From contig CAWDIO010000008.1 of assembly GCA_963802385.1 (NCBI GenBank), forward strand, positions 242,755 through 306,754: a DNA stretch of 64,000 nucleotides, given 5' to 3'. Origin of the DNA: an uncultured Acidimicrobiales bacterium (lineage in GTDB: Bacteria; Actinomycetota; Acidimicrobiia; Acidimicrobiales; VFJN01). Below are positions 2,034 through 30,938 of the stretch, piece after piece. Made by a program: the position numbers and the translations under genes. Below the pieces are notes generated by a model that saw nothing but the letters and a program-made list of their open reading frames with translations, was not told the DNA's origin and ran no database searches. Position 1 is the stretch's first letter; the number at the start of each line of letters is the position of its first letter.

Positions 2034-3275
2034 CTAGCGGCCCACGGGCGACGCGAGCGGTTCGAGGCGTTCCTGCCCGGTGTCCTCGTCCTCCTCCAGG
2101 CGCCAGCCCAGGCGGGCGGCCAGGAGGGGATGGCCCTCGTCGGGCCCGCTGGCGATGAGCTCGTCCCCGTGGACCAGCTCGACGTGGCCCCGGGGCCGGT
2201 ACACGTAGCGCCCGCCCCGCCGGACCGCCAGCACGTGGAAGCCGGGGTCGACGTCGAGCTGGAGCTCCTGGAGGGTGGCACCGTCGGCCGGGCGACCCGG
2301 GGGCGACGGGAACCCGCACCACCACCTCGTCGCTCTCGCCGAGGGCGATCTTGATGATGGGGTGCACCTCCTCGTGCTTCTCGATCAGCCACACCATCTG
2401 CTGGGCCGAGTCGCCCAGGTCCTCGGCCGCCTGGGACAGGTGCAGCAGGCCCCGCAGGGGGGACGGGTCGATGTCGTTGGAGGCGGCCCGCAGCACCCAC
2501 AGCTCCAGCCGGTCCTTCATCTCGTCGAGCCGGTCCTCCAGGTGGCGGACCTCGGCGGCCAGGCCCAGGTCGCGCAGCACCAGCGCCGAGTACGCCAGGC
2601 CGACCGCCGTCTCCGACACGTTCTTCATCTCGACCAGCACGTCGACCGCCCGGTCGAGGTCGGTGAGCGTGCCGTCCTCCGGCGGGGTCGGGGGCTCCCA
2701 CACCGGGGCGGCGGCCAGCTCCCGCAGCCGGGGGATGCCGGCCGGCGAGCCCCGCAGGAACAGGACGTCGCCGGGGATCATGATCTCCTCGCCCTCGACG
2801 TCGGTGATCCACTCCCGGTCGCGGCGGATGGCCACGATGCGCATGCCGGTCTGCACCGGCAGCTCCAGGTCGACCAGCGGCCGGCGGGCCAGGTGCGAGC
2901 CGTCGCGCACCCGCACCCGGTGCGAGACCTCTTCGGCGTTGGACAGGTCCGCCACCAGCTCCCGGGGGATGCCCAGGCGGTGGGTGACGATGCGGGCGAT
3001 GTCCACCGCGTTGTTGGCGATGCGCTCGATGCAGGAGATCACCTGCAGCACCGATGCCAGGGCGTCGGCCTCCCGCGGATTGCGACCCGCCATCACGCAC
3101 ACCGAGCGCATGTCGTGGACGAGGTCGTCCATGCGCTCCTCCAGCGCCGCTCGACCTCCTCGGCCATGGCGGCATCACCGAAGTAGAGCGCCGCGTAGGC
3201 CAGGTCGACCATCAACTCGGAGAGGTCCTTGCCCTCGGCCAGCATGGCTCGGAGATTTCGGGGTCTGTCATCCAT
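2034..3275 (-). CDS. PhoU-domain/TrkA-C-domain regulator (putative cation transport regulator), two apparent frameshifts
   Basis: Three ORF fragments (3093..3275, 1936..3132, 2034..2234) join into PhoU–TrkA_C–PhoU–TrkA_C architecture (MVDLAYAALYFGDAAMAEEVER | MDDLVHDMR...; ...RIVAIRRDREWITDVEGEEIMIPGDVLFLRG...; ...LQELQLDVDPGFHVLAVRRGGRYVYRPRGHVELVHGDELIASGP); one 1-nt deletion near 3155 and one 1-nt insertion near 2265; repaired gene stops 18 nt after SPFH gene end. Confidence 0.75.
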
Positions 3276-6914: not shown

Positions 6915-10603
<3,689 letters not shown>

Positions 10604-10617
10604 GCCCGCCACTATAG

Positions 10618-10631
10618 CGAACGTATGTACG
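10618..10631 (-). promoter_or_regulatory. LexA (Cheo-type SOS) box upstream of dnaE2
   Basis: cgaacgtatgtacg = GAAC-N4-GTAC, one mismatch to actinobacterial GAAC-N4-GTTC; lies 6-15 nt upstream of the dnaE2 GTG; minus strand reads CGTACATACGTTCG-CTATAGT-GGCGGGCGTG, so a -10-like TATAGT sits just before the start codon (short or leaderless transcript). Confidence 0.6.
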
Positions 10632-11088
10632 GGGTCTATCCTCAGATCGCGATCATGTGTGGCCGTGCGACGCGTGCGGGCGGCCATGACCCGAAGATAG
10701 GACCTCAAGTGAACTTGAGGTCAGCCCGACACCCGCGGCTCCGGAGGGGCTGGACCGACCGACGACATCCCGCGGCCCTGCTACCACACCGTCTCTCGGC
10801 TCGGTGCCGGCGCCCGCGAGCCCGAACAGCACGAGCATGCTCGCCAGACGATCGGGCGTTGCGTCCCTACGGTGGGCCTTCGATCACAGAGCACGCCGAG
10901 GGCAACGCTCCGCTGACGATCGCTGCGGCGGACGCAACCGCGCAGGGCAGGATCGGCCTGCTCCTTGCTATCGTCGGCCGTCGAGCGTTCGCAGGTGCAG
11001 GTCGGCGTGCAGTTGCTCCGGTTGCTCCCGGTGGCCCCGGACCCTGGCCCTCGTGGCGACTCGACGCCAGGAACAACGAAGAGAACGT

Positions 11089-11276
11089 CATGCTCGAGAT
11101 GCGTCCAGCCTGTGAGCGATGCCAGTCGCCCCTCGAGGCGACGTCCACCGACGCGCTCGATCTGCAGCTACGAGTGCACCTTCTGTCGTGTCTGCGCCGA
11201 AGAGCTCAACGAGGTCTGCCCGAATTGTGGTGGAGTGCTTGTCGCGCGCCCACCACGCGCCGCAACGGCCAGCTGA
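11089..11276 (+). CDS. DUF1272 zinc-ribbon small protein, apparent 1-nt insertion
   Basis: MLEMRPACERCQSPLEATSTDA (frame 1, RBS gaacaacgaagagaacgtcATG) continues in another frame as ICSYECTFCRVCAEELNEVCPNCGGVLVARPPRA; DUF1272 consensus ...STEAMICSFECTFC... is restored if one g in ctcgatc (about 11150) is removed. Confidence 0.7.
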
Positions 11277-11324
11277 ACCGCCCCGGCCGCCTGGCACGGC
11301 CCGCGGCGCGCACGTCTCGTCGCC

Positions 11325-11777
11325 TCAGTCGTTCGGGGCCGGGTCGTGCAGCCCGGCTGCCCATTGGTTGGTGTCGGTGATCTGTCGCAGTTCGGTGATG
11401 GTGCCGTCGACGACCTGGATGATGTGAGCGAACGCGGCGGTCATGGACCTGCCTGTTGACGGCACGACGCCTCGGTAGTCGCCGATGGCGATGACGGTGT
11501 CGACCCCCGCGTGGTAGATCCGCTCGGGATGGGGCAGCGCAGCGAATGTCGCCATCACCGGGAGCCACACACGGTCCATCATCGCCTGGGCGCCCCGGTA
11601 TGTCCCGCCGAGGCCGCCCGGGAACCCCTGGCTGACGTGGCCGATGAAGTCCGGCGCGAGCGTGTCCAAGACGCCAGTCGGGTCGAGACGGTGGATCGCC
11701 TGGTAGAACTCGACCACGACCGCGAGGTGCGCCGTCGCGGGATCGCTCGCGTCGCCGACGATCTCAGGTTTCAACAT
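11325..11777 (-). CDS. SnoaL-like/NTF2-fold protein
   Basis: C-terminal 150 aa of ORF 11325..12104 (MLKPEIVGD...VVEFYQAIHRLDPTGVLDTLAPDFIGH...AIGDYRGVVPSTGRSMTAAFAHIIQVVDGTITELRQITD); start ATG at 11777. Confidence 0.7.
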   Translation of the reverse strand: MLKPEIVGDASDPATAHLAVVVEFYQAIHRLDPTGVLDTLAPDFIGHVSQGFPGGLGGTYRGAQAMMDRVWLPVMATFAALPHPERIYHAGVDTVIAIGDYRGVVPSTGRSMTAAFAHIIQVVDGTITELRQITDTNQWAAGLHDPAPND

Positions 11778-11820
11778 GCGCTGCTCCGGTGTGGGCTTGC
11801 CGGCTGGCCCGGTATCGATG

Positions 11821-12397
11821 TCATCGGGCTTCGCCGAGCCGCACCGCGGTGTGGCGGCACGCCTCGAACAGGGCTCGGGCCTCATGGCGATCCATGCCGG
11901 CGCGAGCGAGCACCAACGCTCCCACGCACAGCGACATGACGGTTCGGGCCGTGTCTTGCCGCCACTGCTCGGGACCGTCCAGGCGGGCCGCGAGCGCGTC
12001 GGCAAAGCAGGCCACGGATGCCCCGTACGACGCGCGGGGAAGGTCCCCGCCCCGGGCGACGTCGCCTCCGAGCGCCGCGAGCGGGCACCCTCCCGCCCGG
12101 TCACTCCGGTGCTGCTCGTTCAGGTATAGGGAGACGAAAGCCCCGAGCCACTCACCGCCGCGCGGCTCGCCGGCGGGTGTCCGCCGCGGTCAGGCCCTCG
12201 TCCGCGGCATGGGCGATCGCCTCGGCAAACAGCACTTCCTTCGAGCCGAAGTCCGCGTAGAAGCCGCCATGGGTCAGTCCGGCGTCGCTCATGATCTCGG
12301 CGACCGACGCCCCGAACCCCTCGTCTCTGAATCGGCGAGCCGCGCAGGCGATGATCCGACGGCGGGTCTCCCGCTTGTGATCAGGGGTGTAGCGCAA
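11821..12397 (-). CDS. TetR-family transcriptional regulator, apparent frameshift(s)
   Basis: N-terminal HTH in ORF 12152..12397 (RRRIIACAARRFRDEGFGASVAEIMSDAGLTHGGFYADFGSKEVLF), C-terminal ligand domain in ORF 11821..12015; intervening 12016-12151 encodes continuing TetR sequence (GCPLAALGGDVARGGD) in a third frame. Confidence 0.7.
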
Positions 12398-12420
12398 GCC
12401 CGGCCTCCTTCGCTTGCCAT

Positions 12421-12442
12421 TAGATGATGATCTATCATACTA
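12421..12442. promoter_or_regulatory. AT-rich inverted repeat (ATGAT-N5-ATCAT), candidate TetR operator in divergent tetR/DUF4242 intergenic region
   Basis: tagatgatgatctatcatacta in an otherwise ~70% GC region, between divergently transcribed genes. Confidence 0.45.
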
Positions 12443-12511
12443 TGCCCGACAGCCGGCCTGCCACAAGGCCAGCGCCGTCCCGCCCAGACACCACACACCA
12501 GGGAGCCCGCA

Positions 12512-12793
12512 GTGAAGTACTTCATCGACACCCACGACCGAACCAGGAACAGCTTCCCCGCCGAGGAAGCGTCACAAGAGCAGTTCCTCGCCATCTACAG
12601 CGGCATGGACGAGGCCCTGCTATCCGAAGGCGGCTTCCTCAGCGGAGCACACGTCAACCTCGCCGAAGGCAAAGCCTTCTGCCACACCGCAGCCGCAGAC
12701 GAAGCGGCCGTCGCAGCCGCGCACGAAAAGATCGGGCTCCCCTACGACTCGATCACCCAGGTGCACCGCGTCAGCGGCATCGACCTGCGCTAG
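12512..12793 (+). CDS. DUF4242 domain protein (SCO4226-like)
   Basis: ORF 12512..12793, 93 aa, GTG start after RBS gggag; pattern MKYFIDTHDR...EEASQEQFLAIYSG...AEGKAFCHTAAADEAAVAAAHEKIG fits DUF4242. Confidence 0.65.
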   Translation: MKYFIDTHDRTRNSFPAEEASQEQFLAIYSGMDEALLSEGGFLSGAHVNLAEGKAFCHTAAADEAAVAAAHEKIGLPYDSITQVHRVSGIDLR

Positions 12794-12968
12794 CCACACC
12801 CGCGAGCCGCCGGCCGGCACCCGTTGACAACACGCTGTGAGCAGTCAACTGCCGAGGTTCGGCGGCGACGGCGGACCGCGACGACTCCGACCGAACACGC
12901 CGGCGCGCGGCGCCGGCCCTATGACGGGGACGTGAACCATCATCGACCTGACGCCCTTCGCCGATCTG

Positions 12969-13388
12969 GTGCCCCTCGACCACGGCCTCAGCGTCGTCGT
13001 CACGCGCCGCCCCGACCACAGCCCACACACCACCGTCGTCAATGCTGGTGTCGTTCCCCACCGCCTCACCGGTGCCGACTCGGTGGCGTTCGTGGCCGCG
13101 GGTGGAACCCGCAAGCTCGCCCACCTGCGCGCCGACCCCGCCATCGCGGTCGTCGTCCGAGCCGGCTGGCAGTGGACCGCGGTGGAAGGCACGGCCCAGC
13201 TGATCGGACCCGACGACCCGAGCCCCGGATTCGACGCCGAACAGCTCCGACTCCTGCTCCGCGACATATTCACCGCCGCGGGCGGCACTCACGACGACTG
13301 GGCTGCCTACGACCAGGTGATGCGGGACGAACGCCGGACCGCCGTCCTCGTGGCGCCCACGCGCGTGTACTCAGGCGCTCCCCGATGA
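12969..13388 (+). CDS. pyridoxamine 5'-phosphate oxidase (PPOX)-family, probably F420-dependent, protein
   Basis: ORF 12969..13388 (GTG start); SVVVTRRPDHSPHTTVVNAGVV...AIAVVVRAGWQWTAVEGTAQLIGPDD typical of PPOX-class split-barrel. Confidence 0.7.
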   Translation: MPLDHGLSVVVTRRPDHSPHTTVVNAGVVPHRLTGADSVAFVAAGGTRKLAHLRADPAIAVVVRAGWQWTAVEGTAQLIGPDDPSPGFDAEQLRLLLRDIFTAAGGTHDDWAAYDQVMRDERRTAVLVAPTRVYSGAPR

Positions 13389-13445
13389 TCGCCTGGACGC
13401 CATCGCGAATCCTTTCAGGCGGCCCTTCGGCCGACGCTCCACCCC

Positions 13446-13997
13446 ATGACCGAACAGGAGAACGCGGCAGTGTTGGATCTTCCTGAGCTGCTCGTCGAGT
13501 ACGACCGCGCCCGCGCCTACACCGACGCCCTGTGGCGAGATCTCAGCTCCGAAGAGGTGCATTGGCGACCAACCCCCGACTCGAGCGCAATCGGTTGGCA
13601 TCTGGGCCACCAGGCCCACGTCGCTCACTTCATGCTCCGCAACCTCACCGCCGCCGAAGCCAGCCCGAACCCGGCTTTGGACGCACTGATGGACTCCGCC
13701 ACCCCTGAACCCGGCCGCGGAAACCTGCCGAGCCTGGATCAGCTTGCCGCCTTCAGGGCAACGGTCGCAGCACGCATCCACGCCCAGATGACCGCCATCG
13801 ACGCTCGCGACGTCGGCGCGCCCGCGCAGCAGCGAACCGTAGGCCGACACGTCCTCACCCTCGTGATCAACCACGAGTACCAGCACGACCGGTGGATCGG
13901 CGAGGTACGCGAACATGACCTGGGCCACTCACTGCCGCCCGAGCCCGCATGCGCCTGCCTTACCCTCGTCGACAACTACCTGACGCTCGTCGACTGA
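13446..13997 (+). CDS. DinB-family (DinB_2/YfiT-like) metal-dependent protein
   Basis: ORF 13446..13997; EVHWRPTPDSSAIGWHLGHQAHVAHFML...INHEYQHDRWIGEV, a conserved His-triad 4-helix bundle pattern. Confidence 0.7.
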   Translation: MTEQENAAVLDLPELLVEYDRARAYTDALWRDLSSEEVHWRPTPDSSAIGWHLGHQAHVAHFMLRNLTAAEASPNPALDALMDSATPEPGRGNLPSLDQLAAFRATVAARIHAQMTAIDARDVGAPAQQRTVGRHVLTLVINHEYQHDRWIGEVREHDLGHSLPPEPACACLTLVDNYLTLVD

Positions 13998-14144
13998 GAC
14001 GACGAGCGTCGGGATGAGCGTCACGCCCGACCATCGCGTTCTTCGAAGTCTCGGATCCTGACGGCCACGTCGTCGTCCACGACAGCCAGTCGTCGGCCAT
14101 GTGTGACAGTGGCGGCAGCGGTGACGCCGTTGACCCTCACGATC

Positions 14145-15341
14145 TCAGCCAGATCGATCCCGGACTGCGTGCGGGTTCGCCTGGATCTCGGCCCAGGCCG
14201 CCGGCGTGAGGGCGTAGGCGGCCACGGAGCCGGACACGAACCACCGCCACCAGGCGGGATGCACCAGGGTGGCGGCCGCCGCCACGATGAGGGGAACGGC
14301 CGCTCGCCGGTCGCCGCGCCAGGGTGTCATCTCCTCGACGCTGCCCCTGTAGTCGCCGGTCCCGCGGGTGGCGGCGATGAGCTCGCCGGCGATGCCGCGC
14401 CGGCCACGTCCGGCCTGTGCGGCGCCGAGGACGGCGAGGACTGTTTGGTGGGTGCGCTGGCCGGGCGGGCCGGGTGGTTGTGGCGCCGGCGTGCGCCCGC
14501 AGGCCACCTCGAGCAGGGCGCCGACGAGATCGACGCCGGAGCGCCAGGCGTTGACCGGCTCGACGAGCCGCGGGTTGAGGTCGATGAACACCGGGCCGTC
14601 GGCGGTGAGGATCACGTCGGCCGACAGCGCGCCGTGCCAGCCGAGATCGGCCCCGAGCGTGACGAGGTGGGCGCGGATCTGATCGTGATCGATCCCGCGC
14701 TTGTGGCTGGCCCCGCCGTTGGCGCCGAGGCGGACCCGCAGGTTGGCGTGCGATGCCACGAGCTCGCCGCCGTCGAACACGGACTGCACCATGGCCAGGG
14801 GGCCGTCGACGGCTCGTTGCACGAGGACGCCGGCGCCGACGTCGACGGCTGCCAGCTCGGCCACGGTCTCGACCTTCCGCACGCCGGTCGTGGCCGTGCC
14901 GATCGGCTGCTTCACGTACGCGGGTAGGTCCCGCCACCCCTGCAGGTCGTCGTCCGAGCTGACCACGGCGGCCGGCGGCTGGGGCAGCCCGAGGCGGGTG
15001 AGCGTGGCGAACGCCGACACCTTGTCCTGCACTGCGGCGAGAGCGGCGAAGCTCGGTACCGCCGTGCCGACGCCGGCGGCGGCGAGAACGGCGACCTGCT
15101 CCTGGGTCGGGAACAGGACATCGAACGCGCCGGCCTCGTAGACGGCCAGGGCAGCGTCGAGCCAGGCGAACGGGCCGTTCCCGTACGACGGCACGCGGTG
15201 CAGTCGGCGGACGTCACGGGTGAACCGGCACAGGCACAACGGGTCAGAGGTGAGGACCTCGACGTGGTGGCCCATGGCTGCGAGGCGCCCGGCCACCTGG
15301 CGGGACGTGACGCCCGATCCTTCGGTCAGCAGGATCTTCAT
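14145..15341 (-). CDS. ATP-grasp domain protein (carboxylate-amine ligase-like), function unknown
   Basis: ORF 14145..15341, 398 aa; MKILLTEGSGVTSRQVAGRLAAMGHHVEV..., central ATP-grasp (YVKQPIGTATTGVRKVETVAELAA, VLVQRAVDGPLAMVQSVFDGGELVA, FIDLNPRLVEP). Confidence 0.7.
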   Translation of the reverse strand: MKILLTEGSGVTSRQVAGRLAAMGHHVEVLTSDPLCLCRFTRDVRRLHRVPSYGNGPFAWLDAALAVYEAGAFDVLFPTQEQVAVLAAAGVGTAVPSFAALAAVQDKVSAFATLTRLGLPQPPAAVVSSDDDLQGWRDLPAYVKQPIGTATTGVRKVETVAELAAVDVGAGVLVQRAVDGPLAMVQSVFDGGELVASHANLRVRLGANGGASHKRGIDHDQIRAHLVTLGADLGWHGALSADVILTADGPVFIDLNPRLVEPVNAWRSGVDLVGALLEVACGRTPAPQPPGPPGQRTHQTVLAVLGAAQAGRGRRGIAGELIAATRGTGDYRGSVEEMTPWRGDRRAAVPLIVAAAATLVHPAWWRWFVSGSVAAYALTPAAWAEIQANPHAVRDRSG

Positions 15342-15343
15342 GC

Positions 15344-15368
15344 CGTAAGTCTATGCCATATGCTTACG
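15344..15368. promoter_or_regulatory. inverted repeat CGTAAG-N13-CTTACG (inner CATATG) in AT-rich divergent promoter region between ATP-grasp and TetR genes
   Basis: cgtaagtctatgccatatgcttacg; only strongly AT-rich 50 bp in the vicinity; candidate TetR autoregulatory operator. Confidence 0.45.
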
Positions 15369-15391
15369 AGTTACACAATAAGATGTGATGC

Positions 15392-15979
15392 ATGGGACGC
15401 CCACCGCAGATCAGCCGCCCGGCGATCGTCGCGGCCAGCCTCGCCATCGCGGACGAGCGGGGCCTCGCCGGCCTGACCATGCAGGCGGTGGCGCAGCGCC
15501 TCGGCGTCACACCGATGGCCCTCTACCGCCACGTCGACGACAAGGCTGACCTCCTCGACAGCGTCGTCGAAGCGCTGCTCACAGAACTGCCGCTGCCTCG
15601 GGCCGAGCTTGCGTGGGAGGAGCGCCTGCGCGGGCTGGGCCGGGCCGCTCGCACGTTGGCCCGCCGGCACCCGGCCGTCTTCCCGTTGCTGCTCCAGCGC
15701 CCAGCCAGCACGCCGGAGTCAAGACGGGTGCGCGACTCCATCGTCGCCTCGCTCGAGGAGGCCGGGCTCGACCCGGAAGCTGCCCGGCGGGCCGAGCGCC
15801 TCCTCAGCACCGTGATCCTGGGCTTCGCCGCCAGCGAAGCCGGCGGCCGGTTCCGCGGCCACAGCCGCAAGGTGATCGACGACGACTTCGCCTGCCTGGA
15901 GCAGCTCATCGGCCATGCTCTGCAGGACATCGCGACCTCCCCGCCCGGCTCTCGGGTTACAGCTCGCAACGACCGATGA
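15392..15979 (+). CDS. TetR/AcrR-family transcriptional regulator
   Basis: ORF 15392..15979; N-terminal HTH ISRPAIVAASLAIADERGLAGLTMQAVAQRLGVTPMALYRHVDDKADLL. Confidence 0.85.
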   Translation: MGRPPQISRPAIVAASLAIADERGLAGLTMQAVAQRLGVTPMALYRHVDDKADLLDSVVEALLTELPLPRAELAWEERLRGLGRAARTLARRHPAVFPLLLQRPASTPESRRVRDSIVASLEEAGLDPEAARRAERLLSTVILGFAASEAGGRFRGHSRKVIDDDFACLEQLIGHALQDIATSPPGSRVTARNDR

Positions 15980-15994
15980 TGACGTATGTACGCG

Positions 15995-16402
15995 TCAGGC
16001 CTCGCGGGTGGCTGCCTCCCGGGCCTCGGGCAGGATCGGCTCGAACAGCTCGACGGGGTTGCCCGACGGGTCCTCCACCAGGATCTGCTTGCCGCCCACT
16101 CCGGTCACGATCTCGTTGCGGAACGTGACGCCCGCGCCCCGCAGGGCCTCGACGACCCCTTCGAGGTCGGAGACCTCCAGCGAGAACCGGTTCCAGCCGC
16201 CCGGCTCGGGCAGGGTGCCGTCGGGCATGGCCTGGCCGCCGCCCGGTCCGCCCCCTGGTGCGCTGAGCGTGAGCCGGAGGTCGTCCCGGACCAGCATGGC
16301 GAAGGCCGGGGCCGGGTGCATCACTTCGTGGAAGCCGAGGTGCCCGCAATAGAACGCGATCGCGGCGTCGACGTCGTTCACGATGTAGCGGACGGTCGCC
16401 AT
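15995..16402 (-). CDS. VOC-family (glyoxalase/bleomycin-resistance fold) protein
   Basis: C-terminal 135 aa of ORF 15995..16951 (MATVRYIVNDVDAAIAFYCGHLGFHEV...NRFSLEVSDLEGVVEALRGAGVTFRNEIVTGVGGKQILVEDPSGNPVELFEP); ATG at 16402 with RBS aaggagg. Confidence 0.8.
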   Translation of the reverse strand: MATVRYIVNDVDAAIAFYCGHLGFHEVMHPAPAFAMLVRDDLRLTLSAPGGGPGGGQAMPDGTLPEPGGWNRFSLEVSDLEGVVEALRGAGVTFRNEIVTGVGGKQILVEDPSGNPVELFEPILPEAREAATREA

Positions 16403-16423
16403 CGAGGCCTCCTTTCCTCCCTG

Positions 16424-16445
16424 CGTTCGACGGTACCGTCGAACG
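16424..16445. promoter_or_regulatory. perfect 22-bp palindrome CGTTCGACGGTACCGTCGAACG in 54-bp divergent intergenic region (VOC / PPOX)
   Basis: 10-bp arms around central GTAC; flanked symmetrically by the two genes' Shine-Dalgarno sequences (cctcct...aggagg); orientation GTTCGA..TCGAAC is inverted relative to the LexA box. Confidence 0.6.
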
Positions 16446-16456
16446 AAGGAGGTCCC

Positions 16457-16879
16457 ATGGCGTTCACCACCGAGGAGCTCGACTACCTGCGCTCGCAGTC
16501 GCTGGCGCGATTCGCGACCCGTGGCACCGACGGGCAGCCGGACGTGGTCCCGGTGGCGTTCGAGTTCGACGGCACGTACCTCTGGGTGGGCGGCACGGGG
16601 GCCGCCGCGCTCGGGACCCGCAAGATGCGCAACGTGGCCGCCGGTCGCCGCGAGGTCGCGCTGGTCGTCGACGACATGCCGTCGTTCGACCCCTTCGTCG
16701 CCCGCGGGATCCGCATCTACGGCCGGGCCGAGGGGCCGGTCGAGCGCGTCGGGCTCGTCGGGCCGGGCCACTACCTGCGCATCACCCCCACGGTGTCGTG
16801 GAGCTGGAACCTGGAGGGCGCTCCCGCCGGTGACACCTGGTACGAGTCCAGGCGTGCCGATCACCGGCAGGGAGCGTGA
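16457..16879 (+). CDS. PPOX-class F420-dependent oxidoreductase-like protein
   Basis: ATG 16457 after RBS gaaggagg; MAFTTEELDYLRSQSLARFATRGTDGQPDVVPVAFEFDGTYLWVGG..., PPOX split-barrel pattern. Confidence 0.75.
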   Translation: MAFTTEELDYLRSQSLARFATRGTDGQPDVVPVAFEFDGTYLWVGGTGAAALGTRKMRNVAAGRREVALVVDDMPSFDPFVARGIRIYGRAEGPVERVGLVGPGHYLRITPTVSWSWNLEGAPAGDTWYESRRADHRQGA

Positions 16880-16910: not shown

Positions 16911-17405
16911 TCAGTCCGGGCTCGTGTGGGCGAGCACGGTGACGCGGGCACCGCCGGGGTCGAGCAGCGAGAAGCGGCGGATGCCCCAGGGCTTGTCGTC
17001 GAGCTGCTCCACGATGCGCAGGCCCTGGGCGGTCGCCTCGCGGTGGATCTCGCTGACCCGGTCCGCAGTGCCGACGTCGACGATGAAGCCCGGGGGCAGT
17101 GCCGCCAGGTCGCCGTTCACCGAGACCTGGACCTTGGGATCGCTGGGCGAGACGAAGAGCAGGAACTTGTCCTGCTCCATGGCCACGTCGAAGCCGACGA
17201 GCCCGGCGTAGAAGGCCCGGGTCGCCTCGAGGTCGTCGCAACGGATGTCGGGGATGGCGCGGGTGATCGGCATGGTCGCCTCCTTGGCGCCGGCCGCTCG
17301 GCCGGCATCTCGGGCGCGGAGCTGCCGCAGCGCTTCTGCGTAGGACTCGCCGGTCCGTCGGGCCCGGGCCCGCACGAGTTGCTTGAAGTCCTTGTTCGCT
17401 GTCAT
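16911..17405 (-). CDS. VOC-family (glyoxalase-like) protein with ~45-aa basic N-terminal extension
   Basis: ORF 16911..17405; core from MPITRAIPDIRCDDLEATRAFYAGLVGFDVAME...DPGGARVTVLAH; N-terminal MTANKDFKQLVRARARRTGESYAEALRQL may be a separate small protein or an alternative start at about 17274. Confidence 0.65.
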   Translation of the reverse strand: MTANKDFKQLVRARARRTGESYAEALRQLRARDAGRAAGAKEATMPITRAIPDIRCDDLEATRAFYAGLVGFDVAMEQDKFLLFVSPSDPKVQVSVNGDLAALPPGFIVDVGTADRVSEIHREATAQGLRIVEQLDDKPWGIRRFSLLDPGGARVTVLAHTSPD

Positions 17406-20058: not shown

Positions 20059-20074
20059 TCGAACACCTGTTCGC
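20059..20074 (-). promoter_or_regulatory. LexA (SOS/Cheo) box upstream of imuA'-imuB
   Basis: tcgaacacctgttcgc = TCGAAC-N4-GTTCGc, 11/12 match to actinobacterial TCGAAC-N4-GTTCGA; about 115 nt upstream of imuA' GTG. Confidence 0.7.
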
Positions 20075-30906: not shown

Positions 30907-30938
30907 TTGAGCGGATCTAGACGTCTGATTACGCTCAA
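30907..30938. promoter_or_regulatory. nested imperfect palindrome TTGAGCG-N5-AGACGTCT-N5-CGCTCAA upstream of flotillin gene
   Basis: lies in 109-bp divergent intergenic region, about 45 nt upstream of the flotillin ATG. Confidence 0.45.

Follow-up and report, generated by a model that had tools for sequence, protein, structure and literature searches.

A perfect palindrome in the short gap between two divergently transcribed genes raises the question whether it is the operator of a dedicated regulator or whether such symmetry came about in another way. We address this question for a 22-bp palindrome in a stretch of 64,000 nt from contig CAWDIO010000008.1 of an uncultured Acidimicrobiales bacterium (hereafter the window, meaning the whole stretch of DNA that was analysed). 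The element, CGTTCGACGGTACCGTCGAACG, occupies positions 16424-16445, in the gap between a gene encoding a VOC/glyoxalase-fold protein (VOC; 15995-16402, minus strand) and a gene encoding a PPOX class F420-dependent oxidoreductase (PPOX; 16457-16879, plus strand). The reading that we favour, at a probability of about one half, is that of a young, lineage-specific palindrome which template switching would have perfected within a compact and probably bidirectional VOC/PPOX promoter.

Structure of the gap and its variants in related lineages

The VOC/PPOX gap (16403-16456, 54 bp) reads CGAGGCCTCCTTTCCTCCCTG-CGTTCGACGGTACCGTCGAACG-AAGGAGGTCCC. The original prediction had described a perfect 22-bp palindrome between mirror-image ribosome-binding sites, and both parts of this description were confirmed. 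The symmetry is complete over 16424-16445, the Shine-Dalgarno sequence of VOC (CCTCCTT at 16408-16414, corresponding to AAGGAGG on the minus strand) lies 5 nt from the ATG and is kept in relatives, and the Shine-Dalgarno sequence of PPOX (AAGGAGG at 16446-16452, plus strand) lies 4 nt from its ATG. Because both ribosome-binding sites face each other, the whole 54-bp gap is a loose mirror image. Two details required correction: the arms comprise 11+11 instead of 10+10 bp, and the palindrome is not centred in the gap, since it lies 21 nt from the ATG of VOC versus 11 nt from that of PPOX. The palindrome is embedded in an extended quasipalindrome of 30 bp (16420-16449) with a single mismatch (16423 G versus 16446 A), one arm of which includes the first 4 nt of the PPOX Shine-Dalgarno sequence.

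The window contains the palindrome only once. Searches that tolerated 3 or 6 mismatches gave no further copy in the 64 kb, nor was one found in the 1.05 Mb of related loci that were fetched, and as a single-copy sequence it does not qualify as a member of a repeated element of the REP (repetitive extragenic palindrome) or MITE (miniature inverted-repeat transposable element) kind. The identical gap was recovered from the independent metagenome assemblies L001 and L090, and from L003 with one change. This recurrence in three independent metagenome assemblies shows that the palindrome is not an assembly artefact.

For the comparison, about 160 loci with PPOX orthologues were fetched in scans of genome collections and metagenomes. 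A VOC gene located divergently upstream of PPOX was restricted to a narrow clade, and the other PPOX loci had unrelated upstream regions. In six lineages of this clade (L004-9, L010, L092, L093, L094 and L207), whose VOC proteins are 85-94% identical to that of the window, the VOC/PPOX gap carries the invariant 16-nt block CGACGGTATCGGCCAC and no dyad. The remaining variants form a series. L170 and L002 have CGACGGTACCGTCG with a perfect palindrome of 14 bp, the window, L001 and L090 have the 22-bp form, and in L003 the element CCTGCGTTCGACGGTACCGTCGAACGCAGG is a perfect palindrome of 30 bp, in which position 16446 is a C and the mismatch of the extended quasipalindrome has disappeared. Counted from the fixed centre between GGT and ACC, the perfect arm thus measures 1 bp in the six lineages, 7 bp in L170 and L002, 11 bp in the window, L001 and L090, and 15 bp in L003.

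With the six non-palindromic lineages as outgroup, the changes could be polarised. In the first step, TCGGCC was replaced by CCGTCG, which corresponds to four neighbouring exchanges, three of them pair-creating. The second step consisted of GG to TT at 16426-27 together with G to A at 16447, all pair-creating, and the third was the likewise pair-creating A to C exchange at 16446. A substitution placed at random in the 38-nt region would create a pair with a probability of ~0.12 per event. Only two differences in 931 nt distinguish L003 from the window, and the palindrome-extending change is one of them (P ~0.0014). The symmetry was in part prefigured, with 10-11 of 19 positions already paired around the same centre in the outgroup lineages, followed by the intermediates with 7-bp perfect arms. 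Across all gap variants only CGACGGTA, the left inner half of the palindrome, and both ribosome-binding sites are invariant, while the arms are polymorphic even within the species (L002, L170). These variants mark the palindrome as a recent feature at the level of strains, extended step by step around a promoter-like core that is conserved.

The most likely origin of the palindrome would be intrastrand template switching during replication, in which one arm is copied from the other, a process known as quasipalindrome 'correction'. We favour this origin because the pair-making changes are clustered and because symmetry exists at every contiguous position. It is unbroken over all 22 positions (30 in L003), including the central 8 bp, and such unbroken symmetry is the outcome of base-pair templating; the binding of a dimer does not need it. 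The signature of quasipalindrome template switching, established with thyA and lacZ reporters in E. coli and explained by the Ripley model, consists of clustered multinucleotide changes that perfect an imperfect inverted repeat (PMC7202029). Here, too, the ancestral state is an imperfect inverted repeat, and the derived changes come in clusters, each of which raises the complementarity to the opposite arm and could be templated by it. Template switching has been argued to contribute to how inverted repeats and RNA hairpins evolve in bacteria (PMC5941160, PMC8794818), and it has also been reported in promoters (PMC13100816). In contrast to the reporter systems, the present case is known from natural metagenome variants alone, and the palindrome is located in a promoter gap, where selection may act as well.

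Promoter-like elements at the palindrome centre

The invariant half CGACGGTA, which on the VOC strand reads TACCGTCG, contains the hexamer TACCGT (16430-16435, minus strand). It matches the pattern TANNNT, is kept in all variants and may serve as the -10 element of VOC. Its mirror image, a second TACCGT at 16434-16439 on the plus strand, is a putative -10 element of PPOX and is restricted to the palindrome-bearing clade; the counterpart in the relatives is TATCGG, without the final T. Copying of the invariant left half in mirror image would have created this second, PPOX-facing hexamer. The two hexamers share 2 bp at the palindrome centre, as in a symmetrical -10 arrangement. The VOC-strand hexamer ends 7 nt before 16423, and the VOC leader and its Shine-Dalgarno sequence follow downstream. 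Transcription would be predicted to start at ~16422-16423 on the minus strand and at ~16446 on the plus strand, about 23 bp apart, with each predicted start directly preceding its own Shine-Dalgarno sequence. The most likely function of the gap, as far as the hexamers indicate, would be that of a compact bidirectional promoter for VOC and PPOX. The bidirectional control region of the original prediction is plausible, with a TACCGT on each strand at the centre of the palindrome.

Bacterial bidirectional promoters have been defined by divergent start sites 7-25 bp apart (PMC10268837), and the predicted spacing of 23 bp falls within this range. As in those promoters, the gap would drive two divergent mRNAs. 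In the symmetrical -10 type of Warman et al. 2021, as presented in PMC10268837 and PMC12825309, the hexamers on opposite strands share base pairs, as they do here. The common spacing given in these accounts is 18 bp, with reciprocal pairing of -7T and -11A, compared to the predicted 23 bp with a 2-bp overlap in the present case. Furthermore, unlike the systems of Warman et al. as they are portrayed there, the host is a high-GC bacterium of the Actinomycetota with TANNNT-type promoters.

Several points weigh against template switching within a bidirectional promoter. The promoter assignment rests on the TANNNT match, no -35 element is recognisable, and a simple sigma-70 consensus scan returned no promoter in the gap region. 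With a start at the Shine-Dalgarno sequence, the PPOX leader would be only 11 nt long, which is short. With regard to the origin, the directional growth of the palindrome is equally expected from selection for a dyad operator or for a hairpin. L090 has flanks diverged by 1.8% and a gap identical to that of the window, which is compatible with constraint, with only about one change expected in the gap. With comparative data such as these variants, mutation bias and selection cannot be told apart.

Alternative explanations of the dyad

The original prediction had proposed a dedicated dimeric regulator. A related and tentative possibility, to which we give a minor share of our confidence, is an operator for a dimeric transcription factor encoded elsewhere, neither TetR nor LexA, that would repress VOC and PPOX over both -10 regions and whose site would have been recruited recently. 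The perfect dyad is situated in an intergenic gap and overlaps both putative -10 hexamers, its growth toward symmetry was directional, and the unchanged gap of L090 fits this explanation as well. Moreover, PPOX orthologues elsewhere adjoin regulators, namely a divergent TetR_C_7 gene (L176-L183) and a divergent TetR (L120). However, six sister lineages that share the VOC/PPOX pair lack the dyad, its arms vary within the species (L002, L170), and neither the window nor the 1.05 Mb of related loci holds a second site, so that the dedicated regulator of the original prediction was not borne out. In addition, symmetry over the central 8 bp, and over 30 bp in L003, exceeds what recognition by a dimer needs, and no candidate regulator is co-conserved with the VOC/PPOX pair. 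No operator-related publication emerged from a literature search for the hexamers. In L176-L183, a 57-bp gap (~2944-3000) with CGTACG...GTACTGTACGG repeats separates the TetR_C_7-type TetR from the divergent PPOX orthologue (78% identity), an arrangement that resembles a classical TetR/target pair and differs from that of the window.

Three known or recurrent motifs were compared with the gap and set aside. The PafBC/RecA-NDp-type motif (TGTCRGTG-N8-TANNNT) had no match when both strands of both gap types were inspected by eye. The ClgR-type motif (GTTCGC-N5-GCGAAC) has a similar half-site and a mismatched spacing, which is N8 here. The motif TGTCGAT-N12-CGTTCGTGTAG is a different element, since the similar hexamers of the window are 17 and not 12 nt apart. 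This latter motif, absent from the window, is common to many PPOX orthologues of other Actinomycetota (Nonomuraea and others; L033, L039, L043, L080, L085, L120, L161 and further loci), in which it is found 40-70 nt upstream of the start and resembles a promoter of the extracytoplasmic function (ECF) sigma type.

We consider it improbable that the palindrome acts at the RNA level, by forming a 5′-leader hairpin in either or both of the mRNAs that affects stability or masks the PPOX ribosome-binding site. Such a hairpin would require a transcription start further upstream. The predicted folding energies of the gap RNA are indeed low (-30.4 kcal/mol, z = -2.9, for the plus strand and -35.7 kcal/mol, z = -3.2, for the minus strand), the extended stem reaches the AAGGAGG of PPOX, and the predicted hairpin gains strength along the lineage. 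However, the pairing is in part trivial, because the two Shine-Dalgarno sequences face each other and are therefore complementary. There is no conserved RNA structure, because the predicted folds of the relatives' gaps are not more stable than those of shuffled sequence (z = -0.4, -0.2 and -1.3), and no relevant Rfam match was obtained at E values up to 1. An upstream start would moreover fall into the leader or coding region of the opposite gene, where no promoter-like site was seen. An intrinsic terminator is likewise not indicated at the palindrome: there is no T run, the terminator scan was empty, and both genes are transcribed away from the site.

TetR proteins bind palindromes as dimers, and a TetR gene (15392-15979, plus strand, convergent with VOC) is located 445 bp away, which the original prediction had taken as a hint to the regulator. 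In all strains with a perfect palindrome and sufficiently long contigs (window, L001, L090), this gene is adjacent to VOC. Nevertheless, we regard it as very unlikely that this TetR controls VOC and PPOX by binding to the palindrome. Its orthologues (74-89% identity), found on 16 contigs from three lineages (L184-L199), are at every locus divergent from the same ATP-grasp gene (15341-14145 in the window) across a gap of ~50 bp. The gene on the other side of TetR differs between lineages, being an F420H2 quinone reductase gene, a gene for a hypothetical protein or DinB_2, and none of the L184-L199 loci places a TetR orthologue next to VOC or PPOX outside this species. The TetR/ATP-grasp gap of the window (15342-15391) is AT-rich and contains the inverted repeat CGTAAG-N13-CTTACG, which reads ACGTAA...TTACGT in L192 and GAGTAA...TTACTC in L198. 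Compared with CGTAA/TTACG, the L198 arms AGTAA/TTACT represent a compensatory C:G to A:T change. Judged by this pattern, the gap is likely the operator and promoter of the TetR/ATP-grasp module. Its conserved repeat is unlike the GC-rich GTTCGAC palindrome, and no palindrome-like site that would point to autoregulation occurs in TetR's own gap. As for TetR operators in divergent TetR/target gaps, the VOC/PPOX palindrome is found in a short gap between divergent genes; unlike in those, the local TetR stands outside the divergent pair and has a conserved divergent partner and an inverted repeat of its own. The orthologue contexts together with this repeat speak against the palindrome as its operator. 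Across the TetR/ATP-grasp gaps (15342-15391 and L184-L199) we also noticed the general form xGTAA-N15-TTACx, accompanied by the conserved sequence ACACAATAG.

The wider arrangement of the locus points in the same direction. In the relatives L004-L008, L092 and L207, dnaE2 follows VOC after 30 nt, whereas in the window ~5.4 kb, including the TetR and ATP-grasp genes, separate VOC from dnaE2 (minus strand, start GTG at 10603). An 11-bp direct repeat, ACGTATGTACG, is present at both ends of this segment, at 10621-10631 and 15982-15992. L207, which stems from the same metagenome as the TetR contig L184, has the gene order VOC2-PPOX-VOC-dnaE2 without TetR (VOC2 being a second VOC protein gene). From the orthologue contexts, the 5.4-kb segment and the TetR-less L207, it follows that the adjacency of TetR and VOC is recent and incidental.

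Some further observations concern this segment. Apart from TetR and the ATP-grasp gene, it carries (~10632-15981), beyond the latter and toward dnaE2, DinB_2, a second PNPOx and a SnoaL-like gene. The repeat ACGTATGTACG is the duplicated right half of the LexA-like box of dnaE2, and the segment looks like an insertion with target duplication. In L184 (1-656), a TetR/ATP-grasp/PNPOx module 89% identical to that of the window adjoins an rve/Mu-type transposase gene in a related organism, a neighbour that fits the idea of a mobile TetR module. In other relatives, the slot between VOC and dnaE2 is occupied by a Glyoxalase_6 gene (L009) or a PNPOx gene (P0005 contig).

A pure chance palindrome without history or function is very improbable, too. 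Length alone is weak evidence for more than chance, since a perfect palindrome with an arm length of 11 bp or more turned up in 16 of 100 dinucleotide-shuffled versions of the window. However, the palindrome is located in one of few short intergenic gaps, its GC content of 59% makes it more AT-rich than chance palindromes expected in DNA with 74% GC, the value for the window, and the series of 1, 7, 11 and 15 bp arose through pair-creating steps and not by random drift, with the P value of the L003 step alone at ~0.0014.

The actinobacterial LexA (SOS) box is TCGAAC-N4-GTTCGA. The palindrome contains identical hexamers in reversed order, GTTCGA-N8-TCGAAC, with a spacer of 8 instead of 4 nt, and is located, like actinobacterial SOS boxes, among SOS mutagenesis genes. 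Genuine boxes exist elsewhere in the window. A canonical LexA box, TCGAACacctGTTCGC, lies upstream of imuA' (20059-20074) and is found at the same place in L004 and L010, and a LexA-like box, GCGAACGTATGTACGG (GCGAAC-GTAT-GTACGG), lies directly upstream of dnaE2 (10617-10632), beside a TATAGT -10 element, and is conserved in relatives. A scan for the canonical pattern matched 20059-20074 with 1 mismatch and nothing in the VOC/PPOX gap. The original prediction's statement that the palindrome is not a LexA box therefore stands: despite the shared hexamers and the location between imuA'-imuB and dnaE2, a variant LexA/SOS operator controlling VOC beside the mutasome genes is barely credible, given the reversed half-sites and their spacing, the canonical order at imuA', the CGAAC-N4-GTAC box at dnaE2, and the VOC/PPOX gaps of the relatives, including those with VOC directly upstream of dnaE2, which have neither hexamer while the imuA' and dnaE2 boxes are conserved. 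Next to dnaE2, the TATAGT element and the CGAAC-GTAT-GTAC box (10611-10632) are only 7-8 nt upstream of the GTG; the dnaE2 transcript looks leaderless and SOS-controlled, and the same arrangement occurs in L004, L092, L093, L009 and L207.

Genomic context and significance

The VOC/PPOX pair sits within an imuA'-imuB / dnaE2 SOS mutagenesis cluster. VOC has 135 aa and matches Pfam Glyoxalase (8.7e-13). PPOX has 140 aa and matches Pfam PNPOx_N and NCBIfam TIGR04023, the latter with 137 bits (cut-off 85.6). The start codons of both genes match those of their homologues. On the far side of PPOX follow VOC2 (16911-17405, minus strand), imuB (19338-17809) and imuA' (19945-19232; NCBIfam NF058630, 133 bits versus a cut-off of 65). 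In the species-representative collection, the nearest genome is an Acidimicrobiales metagenome-assembled genome with a PPOX identity of 84%. Elsewhere in the window, at 30907-30938, the relatively AT-rich inverted repeat TTGAGCGgatctagacgtctgattaCGCTCAA is conspicuous in the GC-rich DNA.

VOC2 belongs to a family of proteins of 165-170 aa, which was traced down to 50% identity and includes one member named from Hyphomonas. Their N-terminal motif MT..KDFK..VR..A..TG.SY is strongly conserved. A two-helix hairpin is predicted for residues 3-33, joined to the VOC domain by a disordered linker, and no Pfam or NCBIfam model covers this N-terminal part. VOC2 was considered as a hidden regulator and rejected: its matches to PDB sequences span the VOC domain only, no palindrome-like site was found upstream of VOC2 or of one orthologue, and L207 possesses VOC2 together with a non-palindromic gap. 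Nothing links the N-terminal hairpin to DNA binding or to the palindrome.

An operator used by the nearby TetR, as originally proposed, would have been an ordinary finding, and the data speak against it. The locus instead provides a modest but clean natural example of how a perfect palindrome in a promoter gap may emerge and become longer within a species through clustered changes templated by the opposite arm. For genome scans it is a caution, as a perfect dyad between divergent genes alone is no evidence for a dedicated regulator.

A further, speculative suggestion, which we hold with rather little confidence, is that the palindrome represents a newborn cis-regulatory element. From the -10 region of VOC, copied in mirror image by template switching, a symmetrical bidirectional promoter would then have emerged in a single species, or alternatively a new dyad operator through which an existing dimeric regulator couples the expression of VOC and PPOX, with the arms of 7, 11 and 15 bp as functional intermediates. 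The locus may be a test case for the way in which mutation bias provides raw material for bidirectional promoters or new operators. With regard to the organism, the analysis adds to the annotation of the VOC/PPOX pair in the SOS mutagenesis cluster of an uncultured Acidimicrobiales-like lineage, in which the slot between VOC and dnaE2 repeatedly acquires detoxification-type genes.

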